Assembly (NCBI RefSeq): GCF_058153355.1
Contig: NZ_CM177019.1
Direction: 5' to 3' (one strand)
Length of the DNA stretch: 64,000 bases
A program made the translations under genes and the position numbers. Positions 3,794 through 44,078 of the stretch are shown here, in pieces. Under the pieces are notes generated by a model. That model was given only the letters and a program-made list of their open reading frames with translations, did not search any database and was not told where the DNA came from. Each line of letters opens with the position of its first letter. The stretch's first letter is position 1.

Positions 3794-4540
3794 ATGTTGC
3801 TTAGCATAATCACTGTCGCGTTTCGTAACCTCGAAGGGATAGTCAAAACACATGCCTCGCTGGCGCATCTGGCGCAGGCGGACGATATCAGCTTCGAATG
3901 GATTGTTGTCGATGGCGGTTCCAACGACGGTACCCGTGAGTATCTGGAAAATCTCAATGGTATCTATAACCTACGCTTTGTCAGCGAGCCAGATAACGGT
4001 ATCTACGACGCCATGAACAAGGGCATTGCGATGGCACAAGGCAAGTTCGCGTTGTTTCTCAACTCGGGCGATATTTTTCATCAGGATGCCGCAAATTTTG
4101 TCCGTAAGTTAAAAATGCAAAAAGATAACATGATGATCACCGGCGATGCGCTGCTGGATTTTGGCGACGGGCATAAAATTAAGCGTAGTGCTAAACCGGG
4201 CTGGTATATTTATCACAGCCTGCCCGCCAGTCATCAGGCGATATTTTTCCCGGTATCCGGTTTGAAAAAATGGCGTTATGACCTGGAATATAAAGTTTCT
4301 TCTGATTACGCGCTGGCAGCTAAAATGTATAAAGCAGGTTATGCATTTAAAAAACTCAATGGCCTGGTGTCTGAATTTTCCATGGGTGGGGTATCAACCA
4401 CCAATAATATGGAATTGTGTGCTGACGCGAAAAAAGTCCAACGGCAGATATTACATGTGCCTGGCTTCTGGGCAGAATTATCCTGGCATTTACGCCAGCG
4501 TACTACCTCAAAGACGAAAGCCTTATATAACAAAAGCTGA
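3794..4540 (+). CDS. wcaE: colanic acid biosynthesis glycosyltransferase (GT2)
   Basis: 248-aa ORF with GT2 motifs ([10 protein letters not shown]); conserved cluster position. Confidence 0.85.
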
Positions 4541-21785: not shown

Positions 21786-21842
21786 CATTAATATTCACAA
21801 TATATTCTTTTAAATGTAAGCAGAATTAATCGAACCTAAATA

Positions 21843-23357
21843 ATGTCACGTAACAAAATAATCATAAAGAATACTATGTTTTTGGCAACAAGAACCTTAG
21901 TTTCTTTAAGTGTTTCATTTTACACAACAAGAATAGTTATACAACAGTTGGGGGCGGCAGACTATGGCTTATTTAATATCATTTATGGAGTTGTAACATT
22001 TTTTACATTCGTAGTCACCGCGATGAATGATTCTGTACAGCGTTATATTGCAATAGGTGTTGGTTCACAAAAAATATCGGTTATTAGAGATGCTGTAAAA
22101 AATAGTATGTTTATATTTGTTATATCTGCTTTCATATTGGCAGTATGTCTTCTTTTGGCAAGGGGGGTGATCATACATAATATTTTAAATATACCTAAAG
22201 ATTCTATTGAAAATGCAAGTGTGTTATATTTGGTTGCAGTATTTTCAATAACCATACTTATAATTCAGACGCCACTTAATGCGATGGTGTTAGCATACGA
22301 GAAAATGTCATTTTACGCATACATGATGATATTTGAAATGGTAGCTAAAATGAGTATGGCTTTGTTACTAACTTTACTGGAAAAAGATAAGGTCATTGTA
22401 TATTCAATACTTTTAGGTTCTATTTCTTTTTTTAACTTGTTGGTTTATTTATGCTACTGCTTGATATGTTTTAAAAAATCAATGTTTGGTGGGAGAATAA
22501 AATTTAGAGTGCTGAAAGAAATTTCAACTTTTTCATTTTGGAATATATTTGGTAATTTCTCTTACATGTGCAGAGTTCAGGGAGTGAACATTGTAATTAA
22601 TATGTTTTACGCTATAGCCGTGAATGCAGCATATGCGATTTCGATTACTGTTTTAAATGCAATTAATACACTTACGCAATCATTAATTACAGCATTAAGG
22701 CCTCAAATATTTAAATCATATGGCGAATGTGATTTAAAAAGATATAATCATCTAGTTCTCTTTGGTTCAAAATATACATTTTCAATATTGTTTCTGTTAA
22801 GTAGCCCTGTAATTCTATGTGCGGATGAGTTGTTAAAGATATGGCTTGATATTGTACCAGATTATACAGTTGAATTTGTGAGGTTGGTCATTGTTGTGGC
22901 TTTTATTGATAGTTTTTCATATAGCATGATTGCTGGTATTCAGGCTACGGGTAGGATTAAAACATATCAACTAGTTGTTAGTTTAATTGTCCTAATTAAT
23001 TTGCCGTTAACCTTTATTTTGTTTAAGGCAGGAAATAATGTTTTAAGTATGTTTTATCCATTTATTGTTACTGCCATTATCAATCAAGGTTTAAGGTTGT
23101 ATTTTATCTATATCAATGCAGGTTTTGATTATAAGAAGTATTTCACTGTTGTGATCTATCCTTGCTTGTTAGCTGTATGCTTATCGTTAGTGACAGATAT
23201 TTCAATTAAAAAAATGCTTCCATTTAACAGTGTTATTGATGTTTTAATTGTGTGTATTTTTATTTTTTCATTCAATACAATAATTTTTTATTGGGTTGTA
23301 GTTTCTAAAAAGGAAAAAAAATGGTTATTAGAAACCCTGAAAAGAAAAGTGAAATAA
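21843..23357 (+). CDS. wzx: O-antigen flippase (Wzx family)
   Basis: 504-aa strongly hydrophobic polytopic ORF; AT-rich; first gene after JUMPstart; start could be a downstream ATG. Confidence 0.7.
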   Translation: MSRNKIIIKNTMFLATRTLVSLSVSFYTTRIVIQQLGAADYGLFNIIYGVVTFFTFVVTAMNDSVQRYIAIGVGSQKISVIRDAVKNSMFIFVISAFILAVCLLLARGVIIHNILNIPKDSIENASVLYLVAVFSITILIIQTPLNAMVLAYEKMSFYAYMMIFEMVAKMSMALLLTLLEKDKVIVYSILLGSISFFNLLVYLCYCLICFKKSMFGGRIKFRVLKEISTFSFWNIFGNFSYMCRVQGVNIVINMFYAIAVNAAYAISITVLNAINTLTQSLITALRPQIFKSYGECDLKRYNHLVLFGSKYTFSILFLLSSPVILCADELLKIWLDIVPDYTVEFVRLVIVVAFIDSFSYSMIAGIQATGRIKTYQLVVSLIVLINLPLTFILFKAGNNVLSMFYPFIVTAIINQGLRLYFIYINAGFDYKKYFTVVIYPCLLAVCLSLVTDISIKKMLPFNSVIDVLIVCIFIFSFNTIIFYWVVVSKKEKKWLLETLKRKVK

Positions 23358-36063: not shown

Positions 36064-36668
36064 TCACTGATGCCGTTTACGCAGGTTCTCAATCACCGTC
36101 GTTAAATCCAGATCCTGATCCTGCAACAACACCAGCAGGTGATACATCAAGTCAGATGCCTCGTTGGTCAGCTCAAAGCGGTCATGTACCGTTGCTGCCA
36201 GCGCAGTTTCCACGCCTTCTTCGCCCACTTTCTGCGCGATGCGTTTGGTGCCGCTGGCATACAGTTTGGCGGTATAGGAGGTTTCCGGGTCGGCAGTTTT
36301 GCGCTCGGCGAGTAGTTGTTCCAGTTGATACAGGAACAGCCACTGGTGAGCGGTGTTGCCGAAGCAGCTGCTGGTGCCTTTGTGGCAGGTTGGCCCGATG
36401 GGATTCGCCAGCACCAGTAACGTGTCGTTGTCGCAGTCCGGCGCAATACTCACCACATTGAGGAAATTGCCCGACGTTTCGCCTTTGGTCCACAGTCGCT
36501 GTTTAGTGCGGGAGAAAAAGGTGACTTTGCCGCTTTCGATGGTTTTGTCTAAGGCTTCCGGGCTCATATAGCCCAGCATTAGCACTTCGCCAGATACCGC
36601 GTGTTGCACAATCACCGGCATCAGTCCGTCGGTTTTTTCCCAGTCCAGTTCGCGACGTTGTTGTTCTG

Positions 36669-36675
<7 letters not shown>
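36064..36675 (-). CDS. hisI: bifunctional phosphoribosyl-AMP cyclohydrolase / phosphoribosyl-ATP pyrophosphatase
   Basis: 203-aa ORF; last gene of the his operon; overlaps hisF. Confidence 0.95.
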
Positions 36676-38753
<2,078 letters not shown>

Positions 38754-38754
<1 letters not shown>

Positions 38755-39820
38755 TACAGCACTCCTTTCGACGAGGGCAGGGTATCGCCTTCCACGCGGA
38801 TGGCCTGGCGCAGGGTGCGACCAAAAGCTTTGAACAGGCTCTCTACACGGTGGTGATCGTTTTTACCTTTGGTTTTCAGGTGCAGGGTCACGCCCATGGT
38901 GTATGAGAGCGAACGGAAGAAGTGCTCGATCATTTCGGTGCTGAGATCGCCCACGCGCTGGTAGGTAAACTCGGCTTTATATTCCAGGTGCGGGCGACCA
39001 GAGATATCCAGCGCGCAGCGGGCAAGGCATTCGTCCATCGGCAGTACAAAACCAAAGCGGCAAATACCGCGTTTGTCGCCAAGAGCAATTTTTAATGCTT
39101 CGCCCAGCGCCAGGCCGGTATCTTCGACGGTGTGGTGATCGTCGATATAGAGGTCGCCTTTGACGTTGATTTCCATCCGGAAACCGCCGTGGGTGGCGAT
39201 CTGATCCAGCATGTGATCAAAGAAGCCAACGCCGGTGTTAATCTTGCTGCCACCTTCGCGATCCAGCCACACCTGGACGTCAATCTGCGTCTCTTTGGTG
39301 TTGCGCACTACATGGGCGTAACGGTCTCGTTTAGTGAGTTGCTCACCAATCATCGGCCAGTTCAGGGCTTCGCGGTCGTAGCGTAAACCATTAATGCCCA
39401 TGTTTTCCGCCAGTTGAATGTCGGTCGCGCGATCGCCAATCACATAACTGTTAGCGCGATCCATCGCTTGCTCAGCCAGATAACGCTCCACCAGTTTTAC
39501 TTTCGGCTTACGGCAGTCGCACTCATCGGCGGGCAGGTGCGGACAAATCAGCACTTCATCAAACTGCACGCCTTGCGAGGTGAAGATCTGCATCATCAGG
39601 TTGTGCGGGCCATCAAAATCCGCCTGCGGGAAACTTTGTGTTCCCAGACCATCCTGATTAGTGATCATCACCAGTTTGTAGCCCGCTTTTTGCAGCTTCA
39701 GCAGCTGAGGGATCACGCCCGGTTCAAAGGCGAGTTTGTCAAAACGGTCCACCTGAAAATCACTCGGCGGTTCGCTAATCAGGGTTCCATCGCGATCGAT
39801 AAAAAGATACTTCTGACTCA

Positions 39821-39821
<1 letters not shown>
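38754..39821 (-). CDS. hisB: bifunctional histidinol-phosphatase / imidazoleglycerol-phosphate dehydratase
   Basis: 355-aa from [14 protein letters not shown] (HAD motif), dehydratase domain C-terminal. Confidence 0.95.
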
Positions 39822-42192
<2,371 letters not shown>

Positions 42193-42197
42193 GGCGA

Positions 42198-43097
42198 TCA
42201 CTCCATCATCTTCTCAATCGGCAGGACCAGGATTGAACTGGCACCCAGCGCTTTCAGTTTTTCCATCGTTTCCCAGAACAGGGTTTCGCTACTGACCATG
42301 TGCATCGCTACGCGTTGTTGGTCACCCGCCAGCGGCAGAATGGTTGGGCGTTCGGCACCTGGCAGCAGGGCGATGACTTCATCCAGACGTTCGGTCGGTG
42401 CGTGCATCATGATGTATTTTGATTCGCGCGCCTGGATCACACCCTGAATACGGGTCAGCAGTTTGTCGATCAGTTGCTGTTTGGATTCTTCCATTTCGCC
42501 ATCGCGCTGGATCAGGCAGGCTTTCGAGCGGTAGATAACTTCGACTTCGCGCAGGCCGTTAGCTTCCAGCGTGGCACCGGTGGAAACCAGATCGCAAATC
42601 GCATCCGCCAGTCCGGCACGCGGCGCAACTTCGACAGAGCCGTTCAGTAAGCAGGATTTAAAAGAGATACCTTTCTGGTCGAGATAACGCTTGAGCAGGT
42701 GAGGATAAGAGGTGGCGATACGTTTACCATTTAAGGAGAGCGGACCGTCCCAGGCTTCATCAACCGGCGTTGCCAGCGAAAGGCGGCAGCCGCCGAAATC
42801 CAGACGACGCAAGGTAAAGTAGCGCGGATCTTCACCCTGGGCGCGGCGGTTAAGCAGCTCTTCTTCCAGCACGTTTTCGCCGATAATCCCAAGGTCTACC
42901 ACGCCGTCCATTACCAGACCGGGAATGTCATCGTCACGCACGCGCAGAATATCAATCGGCATGTTTTCTGCCATCGCGATCAGGCGCTGGGTGTGAAGAT
43001 TGATTTTAATGCCACAGCGCGCCAGTAATTCGCGTGAGTCATCACTTAAACGGCCGGATTTCTGCATAGCTATGCGTAAACGAGTGTTGTCTGTCAT
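42198..43097 (-). CDS. hisG: ATP phosphoribosyltransferase
   Basis: 299-aa from [15 protein letters not shown]; the longer ORF start at 43136 rejected. Confidence 0.95.
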
Positions 43098-43145
43098 TTT
43101 CTTATTCCTCTTTAAACCTGTCTGAACCGTTAACAACCGCGCAAT

Positions 43146-43182
43146 AAAAAAGCCCCCGGAAGGTGATCTTCCGGGGGCTTTC
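43146..43182 (-). terminator. his attenuator terminator hairpin
   Basis: On the - strand: gaaagcccccggaagatcaccttccgggggctttttt between hisL and hisG. Confidence 0.8.
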
Positions 43183-43242
43183 TCATGCGTTCATGCACCA
43201 CTGGAAGATCTGAATGTCTTCCAGCACACATCGCCTGAAAGA

Positions 43243-43293
43243 CTAGTCAGTATGATGGTGATGATGGTGGTGTTTAAATTGAACGCGTGTCAT
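43243..43293 (-). CDS. hisL: his operon leader peptide
   Basis: 16-codon ORF on the - strand, MTRVQFKHHHHHHHTD, with seven consecutive His codons just upstream of the attenuator. Confidence 0.9.
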   Translation of the reverse strand: MTRVQFKHHHHHHHTD

Positions 43294-43540
43294 AAAAGTC
43301 TCTGTGAATGTTTATTCAACTGATGTCTTTTAACCTAAACCACTTTCACGTTAGAAAGCAAGGGCTTTTTTATATATTTTATGGCGATGGATTTGTTTAA
43401 TGAATGAGCGGGGAAAGGAGGGGGCTAAGAGGACTGTCCTCTAACTTGACAGCACCAAAAAGAGCAAAGTCTGATTTTTCGTCTCGCTGGCAATGTCTTG
43501 ATCTACAAACTAATTAATAAATAGTGAATTAACACCCATC

Positions 43541-43562
43541 ATTGTACAATGAACTGTACAAA
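43541..43562 (+). promoter_or_regulatory. candidate YefM-YoeB operator (TGTACA palindromes)
   Basis: attgtacaatgaactgtacaa: two TGTACA cores with 6-bp spacing immediately upstream of the yefM start. Confidence 0.5.
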
Positions 43563-43575
43563 AGAGGAGATTTAC

Positions 43576-43827
43576 ATGCGTACAATTAGCTACAGCGAAG
43601 CGCGTCAGAATTTGTCGGCAACAATGATGAAAGCCGTTGAAGATCATGCCCCGATCCTCATTACTCGTCAGAATGGAGAGGCTTGTGTTCTGATGTCACT
43701 CGAAGAATACAACTCGCTGGAAGAGACGGCTTATCTACTGCGTTCCCCCGCTAACGCCCGGAGATTGATGGACTCAATCGATAGCCTGAAATCAGGCAAA
43801 GGAACGGAAAAGGACATTATTGAGTGA
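43576..43827 (+). CDS. yefM: antitoxin YefM
   Basis: 83-aa from [17 protein letters not shown]; 4-nt overlap with the following toxin gene. Confidence 0.9.
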
Positions 43828-44078
43828 AACTAATCTGGTCTGAGGAATCATGGGATGATTATCTGTACTGGCAGGAAACAGATAAGCGAATTGTTAAAAA
43901 GATCAATGAACTTATCAAAGATACCCGCAGAACACCATTTGAAGGTAAGGGGAAACCAGAACCCCTGAAACATAATTTGTCAGGTTTCTGGTCCCGACGC
44001 ATTACAGAGGAGCACCGTCTGGTATACGCGGTTACTGATGATTCACTGCTCATTGCAGCATGTCGTTATCATTATTGA
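43824..44078 (+). CDS. yoeB: toxin YoeB (ribosome-dependent mRNA interferase)
   Basis: 84-aa ORF ([22 protein letters not shown]...) coupled to yefM. Confidence 0.9.

Follow-up and report, generated by a model that had tools for sequence, protein, structure and literature searches.

Does a his operon leader peptide with a threonine at its penultimate position differ from that of Escherichia coli K-12 in its peptide sequence only, or does the underlying base change also reach the RNA structures through which the operon is attenuated? The locus that raises this question lies in a 64,000-nucleotide stretch of DNA (contig NZ_CM177019.1 of assembly GCF_058153355.1), hereafter referred to as the window. 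Here we establish the identity of the leader, place the variant base within the leader RNA, trace its distribution and likely origin among sequenced genomes, and weigh what it may mean for transcriptional pausing and attenuation.

The leader ORF and its genomic setting

An initial annotation, made from the sequence alone, had described a hisL leader with seven His codons and a penultimate Thr, without stating the strand. This description is confirmed, and the strand is minus: the reverse complement of the interval (43293..43243) translates as MTRVQFKHHHHHHHTD*, a leader-peptide ORF of 16 codons and a TAG stop at 43243..43293 on the minus strand, where strain VL7S7, which is near-identical to the window, has its annotated hisL at the same coordinates. 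The plus-strand reading of 43243-43293 was rejected, as its translation, LVSMMVMMVVFKLNACH, is nonsense. The codons of the minus-strand ORF are ATG ACA CGC GTT CAA TTT AAA CAC CAC CAT CAT CAC CAT CAT ACT GAC TAG; the seven consecutive regulatory His codons (43252..43272, minus strand) are the same as those of K-12 by alignment, and the run is followed by ACT (Thr), GAC (Asp) and the stop codon. The Rfam His_leader model RF00514 matches the minus strand at 43144..43267 over its full length (model positions 1-126 of 126), with a score of 126.6 bits against a gathering score of 49 and an E-value of 1.1e-21. This full-length match, the presence of hisG downstream, and the fact that the 30-mer of the His run occurs once in the window with 0 occurrences expected from 100 shuffles together demonstrate that the ORF is not a product of chance. 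The element is the well-known his-operon leader, the hisL attenuator, of E. coli and not a new system; furthermore, the Thr allele is already catalogued in RefSeq, as the product 'hisL: his operon leader peptide' with accession WP_071779509.1.

The leader precedes a complete his operon, hisGDCBHAFI, at 36064-43097 on the minus strand. The first structural gene under its control, hisG (42198..43097, minus strand; from the ORF list and the VL7S7 annotation), is co-oriented with the leader and begins 146 nt past its stop codon; the encoded HisG protein is identical to that of K-12. At residue 273 of HisG, both the window and K-12 have L and VL7S7 has Q. Between the leader ORF and hisG, a strong hairpin at 43186-43144 with U-rich sequence after it is seen in both the Rfam structure and the minimum free energy (MFE) fold; this is the E:F attenuator hairpin, an intrinsic terminator with its U-tract (43144..43186, minus strand), and it is the same as in K-12. 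The C:D hairpin, which the MFE fold and the Rfam consensus structure place at 43202..43223 on the minus strand, has a stem of 7 bp and a loop of 8 nt and is likewise the same as in K-12. A simple consensus scan called no promoter and no terminator in 43050-43600, a null result that is uninformative since the scan misses the his attenuator that is obvious in the Rfam match and the MFE fold. Read by eye, a putative his promoter is formed by the hexamers TTGCTT and TAGGTT, 18 nt apart, at 43332..43361 on the minus strand; the sequence of this region is the same as in K-12 by alignment. The yefM-yoeB toxin-antitoxin pair lies divergently from hisL at 43,576-44,078 on the plus strand, and the spacer of about 280 nt between yefM and hisL carries about 24 differences from K-12 (alignment columns 58-245), as against one in the leader.

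Further from the leader, a comparison with VL7S7, the annotated coordinates of which line up with those of the window, gives a view of the rest of the window. The O-antigen cluster between galF and gnd (about 21,800-32,000, plus strand) is 99.8% identical to that of VL7S7, the annotation of which assigns wzx and wzy to the 'O124/O164 family'; these serogroups have a classic link with enteroinvasive E. coli and Shigella-like strains. The wzzB accession in the O-antigen region, WP_005032025.1 in the VL7S7 annotation, is of the Shigella type. In the colanic-acid cluster, wcaE of VL7S7 is split by IS1A (69,127-69,824), and the window at about 4,081-4,088 is without IS1A and has an apparently intact wcaE, with a blast offset of 768 nt between the two sequences. 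Synteny with VL7S7 stops abruptly at about 56,294, beside a frameshifted IS110-like ISSso6 transposase; past this breakpoint VL7S7 has a CP4-44-like island with yeeW, cbtA/cbeA, antirestriction and dynamin-family genes, and the window (56,295-64,000) has ISL3 and IS3 transposases, a PfkB kinase, a DMT transporter and a phosphotriesterase-related gene, an arrangement shared with strains B379 and XD35 (99.9%). With these differences, and that at HisG residue 273, the window belongs to a close relative of VL7S7 and not to VL7S7 itself.

The variant base and the his pause hairpin

The initial annotation had stated that the K-12 leader peptide ends in PD and had suspected a minor variant, CCT to ACT. 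The statement was correct, as MG1655 hisL encodes MTRVQFKHHHHHHHPD*, and alignment and translation bear out the variant: codon 15 (43249..43251, minus strand) is ACT in the window and CCT in K-12, a C to A transversion at window position 43251 (A on the minus strand, T on the plus strand) that gives Pro15Thr. The further claim that the region is not identical to the reference holds by exactly one base, in that 190 of the 191 leader nucleotides (43330-43140) are the same as in K-12 and 43251 is the sole difference. Regions B to F of the leader are base-for-base those of K-12, and the alignment with K-12 reveals no compensatory second-site change, either G to U at 43234 or elsewhere in the 191-nt leader. 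Beyond the leader, differences from K-12 are found in the upstream spacer between yefM and hisL and at 2 bases between the terminator and the hisG start codon.

Position 43251 is the 5' nucleotide of the canonical his pause hairpin, (C/A)CUGA-CUAGUCUU-UCAGG, among the most studied RNA elements in transcription biology, and the substitution strikes its closing pair. The canonical hairpin has a stem of 5 bp and a loop of 8 nt, and the RNA in the scaffold used for cryo-EM of the his paused elongation complex (hisPEC), RNA29, has the sequence CCUGACUAGUCUUUCAGGCGAUGUGUGCU, with its G20 at position -10 in the hisPEC structure (PMC5842316). RNA29 corresponds to window positions 43251-43223 on the minus strand; where it begins with C, the window has A. 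The hairpin of the window, as placed by the Rfam alignment, the published structure (PMC5842316) and folding, reads aCUGA-CUAGUCUU-UCAGg at 43234..43251 on the minus strand; it closes with an A.G mismatch, leaving 4 bp, and the Rfam alignment flags the pair that contains 43251 as non-canonical (its 'v' mark). The 5' arm is formed by codons 15-16 (CCU GA in the canonical form), the leader stop codon UAG lies within the loop, and the 3' arm, UCAGG, is non-coding. The segment CGAUGUGUGCU (43223..43233, minus strand), which comprises the spacer and the RNA:DNA-hybrid segment up to the pause 3' end (U at 43223), is unchanged from K-12, and the 3'-proximal and downstream sequence of the pause site (CGAUGUGUGCU / GG...) is the same as in both K-12 and RNA29. 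The window thus departs from the canonical pause geometry of a 5-bp stem with its base 11-12 nt from the 3' end, as it has 4 pairs and its first paired 3'-arm base is at -13.

These positions bear on the one statement in the initial annotation that stands only in part. Its view that the change would not affect attenuation by His codons is upheld for the sensing of those codons, but 43251 also lies in the closing pair of the pause hairpin and in the A:B stem, and a possible effect on the synchronisation of transcription with translation therefore has to be taken into account.

Distribution and origin of the Thr allele

The allele was counted in complete E. coli genomes, with Shigella and draft genomes excluded, using a 61-nt query centred on the variant base. 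The Thr form is present as an exact 61-mer in 8 of 5,426 genomes (0.15%), and the K-12 61-mer is found exactly in 4,872 of 5,423 records, so that the alignment with reference hisL sequences that had been proposed as a check finds Thr absent from K-12 and rare in the species. A 62-nt query running from the hairpin through C:D was effectively K-12 in 5,316 records and had 1-3 mismatches in 107, 8 of which are the Thr allele. A 34-mer of the Thr allele (CACCATCATACTGACTAGTCTTTCAGGCGATGTG) had 0 matches in metagenome assemblies, in which the Pro 34-mer, serving as the positive control, had at least 120.

The site is more conserved still across species. We scanned Enterobacterales species representatives with a pattern that left the two bottom pairs of the hairpin free and fixed the rest of the hairpin, and CC...GG together with the peptide end HPD* was found in 120 of the 120 matches listed, an invariance that carries an ascertainment bias and applies only among otherwise canonical leaders. 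The 120 listed loci range from Escherichia to Serratia, Pantoea and Erwinia, and among them the peptide varies at its N-terminus and in its number of His codons (4-10). In these 120 matches the coding arm and the non-coding 3' arm of the hairpin are equally invariant; the simplest explanation for the conserved Pro-Asp-stop end of HisL is therefore the RNA hairpin that it encodes, and not the peptide. Taken by itself, the invariance of CC..GG across species cannot separate a constraint on the RNA from a constraint on Pro.

Other natural hisL alleles came to light when non-K-12 forms were sampled. O157:H7 genomes, here strain MD2019EC2705C4, have His8 changed to Gln (CAC to CAG), giving MTRVQFKQHHHHHHPD (WP_010904803.1) and shortening the consecutive His run from seven to six. 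Strain 06_3044 has an in-frame deletion of 3 nt in the His run, leaving six His, and strain LFB1-1-1R has an in-frame deletion of 9 nt, leaving four, and no longer has a hisL annotation; in-frame deletions of this kind in the His run should alter the sensitivity of attenuation more directly than the Thr allele. Synonymous changes in hisL include TTT to TTC and GAC to GAT, the latter falling on the first loop nucleotide of the pause hairpin, and in one strain the 3' arm of the C:D hairpin is altered. No change in the stem of the pause hairpin was seen in the eight other non-K-12 hisL alleles sampled. Two strains labelled E. coli, LZYWN_4 and SW07163, have Klebsiella-like his leader segments; in LZYWN_4 the leader begins MNRVQFK..., is 89% identical, and is accompanied by a HisG accession unlike that of other E. 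coli records, and SW07163 shares substitutions in the C:D loop with LZYWN_4. These sequence similarities suggest inter-genus import of the his region in both strains.

The eight carriers of the Thr allele, among them NCTC10444, VL7S7 and Z503, come from humans (China, Thailand), chickens (China, South Africa, USA), a calf (NCTC10444) and river water (Japan), with one source unspecified. Over 10.2 kb around hisL they differ pairwise by 4-151 sites, and K-12 differs from them at about 220-245 sites. Around the leader itself no difference separates the carriers over a stretch of 0.9 to more than 5 kb, the breakpoints of which differ on each side. A sister haplotype, that of FDAARGOS_1277, differs at only 2 of 2,501 nt (43251 and 44099) and has C at 43251, giving the codon CCT. 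The shared local haplotype, the mosaic flanks and the near-identical sister haplotype with CCT argue for one mutation that was later moved or retained by recombination; the simplest reading of these sequences is a single, recent, derived change on an existing haplotype, the flanks of which were then reshuffled. The neighbourhood of his and the O-antigen cluster is known to be prone to recombination.

Predicted consequences and comparison with known leaders

In his attenuation, slow translation of the His codons leads to the antiterminator pairings and fast translation to the terminator; RNA polymerase halts at the his pause site and moves on once the leading ribosome has melted the pause hairpin, and substitutions that disrupt the stem of this hairpin shorten the pause. 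The attenuation mechanism of the K-12 his leader is established in the literature (PMC11805395; PMC1183508). Melting of the his pause hairpin by the ribosome releases RNA polymerase and couples transcription to translation (PMC4227799), and modelling work regards hypersensitive attenuation as strictly dependent on this synchronisation (PMC1183508). Pauses become about 10-fold longer when an RNA duplex lies 11-12 nt upstream of the paused 3' end, and the spacing between hairpin and 3' end determines the interaction with the flap (PMC12288461).

Folding of the two alleles gives energies of -4.6 to -5.1 kcal/mol for the isolated K-12 hairpin and -2.9 kcal/mol for that of the window; the corresponding values are -14.2 and -11.8 kcal/mol for the A:B region, and -68.4 and -66.0 kcal/mol for the whole leader. 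When folding is limited to the nascent RNA that is available at the pause, the closing pair has a probability of 0.95 in K-12 and of 0 in the window, and the other four pairs stay at 0.94 or above; in free RNA the 4-bp hairpin is still predicted to fold, with a pair probability of about 0.94-0.97. When region A is masked by a ribosome, stalled either at the His codons or at the stop codon, both alleles fold identically, and we therefore expect the sensing of His, the antiterminator and the terminator to function in the window as they do in K-12. The equilibrium folds with a masked ribosome footprint produce the antiterminator (B:C, D:E) in neither allele; the terminator dominates thermodynamically, and the switch is kinetic.

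These calculations suggest a model in which the change acts only on the pause and synchronisation step and on the translation-independent A:B state. The pause hairpin would be reduced to a 4-bp stem, weaker by about 1.7-2.4 kcal/mol, with its base 13 nt and not 12 nt from the paused 3' end, which would give a modestly shorter hairpin-stabilised pause and a slightly looser A:B stem. Since folding still predicts a 4-bp hairpin, the pause itself may be barely changed. For his expression the net effect is probably small and the polymorphism nearly neutral or mildly deleterious; that the allele persists in at least 8 strains, isolated on several continents from humans, chickens, a calf and river water, speaks against a strong defect. 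Taking structure and distribution together, we consider it very likely that the window carries a canonical his attenuator with a rare, derived C to A change, in which the pause hairpin is predicted to be weakened and the leader is otherwise K-12-like, and that this change had a single origin and was then spread by recombination.

Other explanations for the allele differ in how much they ask of the pause hairpin. An error of sequencing or assembly at 43251 would have nothing in its favour beyond the single-base nature of the change, and we reject it as having a negligible probability: 8 complete assemblies, made independently in different laboratories and countries, agree on this base and share one local haplotype. 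A fully neutral polymorphism, marking one local haplotype and having no measurable effect on pausing, attenuation or his expression, is a serious possibility, if one to which we give rather less than an even chance. The probability of the four remaining stem pairs, the unchanged pause-site sequence, C:D hairpin, terminator and His codons, and the occurrence of the allele in 8 healthy-looking genomes from diverse hosts with the his operon intact are all consistent with neutrality; set against it are the invariance of the site in the 120 listed species representatives, the rarity of the allele in E. coli and its absence from the metagenome matches, and the reported sensitivity of hairpin-stabilised pausing to where the duplex base lies with respect to the 3' end (PMC12288461). 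A more far-reaching proposal, that Pro15Thr is a natural weakening of the his pause hairpin with a measurably shorter ribosome-releasable pause and a shifted basal level or sensitivity of attenuation, possibly maintained or spread by selection in, for example, poultry-associated lineages, appears unlikely on present evidence.

A stronger form of selection, in which a weaker pause hairpin and A:B stem reset the basal his level or its sensitivity and the allele was spread by recombination because it was adaptive, strikes us as improbable. A single haplotype block of about 0.9-5 kb in backgrounds with flanks up to 1.5% apart would fit such a history, as would the poultry origin of 3 of the 8 carriers; yet the carriers number only 8 among 5,426 genomes, no second-site or compensatory change accompanies the allele, and mosaic flanks are to be expected without selection in a region of this kind. 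An effect through the peptide, in which the loss of Pro15 would alter the kinetics of decoding or termination and hence the time that the ribosome spends on the stop codon, is highly improbable in our estimation. We know of no strong stalling context that consists of a single Pro at -2 from the stop, and the equal invariance of the non-coding UCAGG arm means that a constraint on the RNA can explain PD without recourse to the peptide, even though the C-terminal PD* is invariant in the 120 listed species where the N-terminus varies, and ribosome release at the leader stop codon adds to basal read-through in models of attenuation (PMC1183508).

For the interpretation of this genome the allele has little bearing, as the leader is a textbook his attenuator and its Thr form is already in RefSeq. 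Its interest lies in the natural material that it offers: NCTC10444, VL7S7, Z503 and the other carriers provide a ready allele with which to address the contribution of one stem pair, and of a spacing of 12 versus 13 nt, to pausing and attenuation. Should the pause prove to be weakened and attenuation shifted, these strains would constitute a natural experiment on the weight of transcription-translation synchronisation in vivo.

A comparison with the known his leaders highlights how narrow the difference is. The window shares with the K-12 and Salmonella hisL leaders (RF00514) the location between yefM and hisG, the 16-codon ORF, the seven His codons, the pause site, the C:D hairpin and the terminator; it differs from them in having ACT and not CCT as codon 15, and in closing the inner A:B hairpin, which is the pause hairpin, with an A.G mismatch. 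With the his pause signal of the hisPEC scaffolds (PMC5842316), a hairpin-stabilised pause of class I, it has in common the loop, four of the five stem pairs, the 11-nt CGAUGUGUGCU and the downstream sequence, and compared with RNA29 it starts with A in place of C, which leaves a 4-bp stem based at -13, as against -12 in RNA29. In the other E. coli alleles, those of O157:H7, 06_3044 and LFB1-1-1R, which are likewise rare variants that each go back to a single event, the His sensor is changed and the pause hairpin is intact, whereas the allele described here is the reverse, with the sensor intact and the pause hairpin changed.
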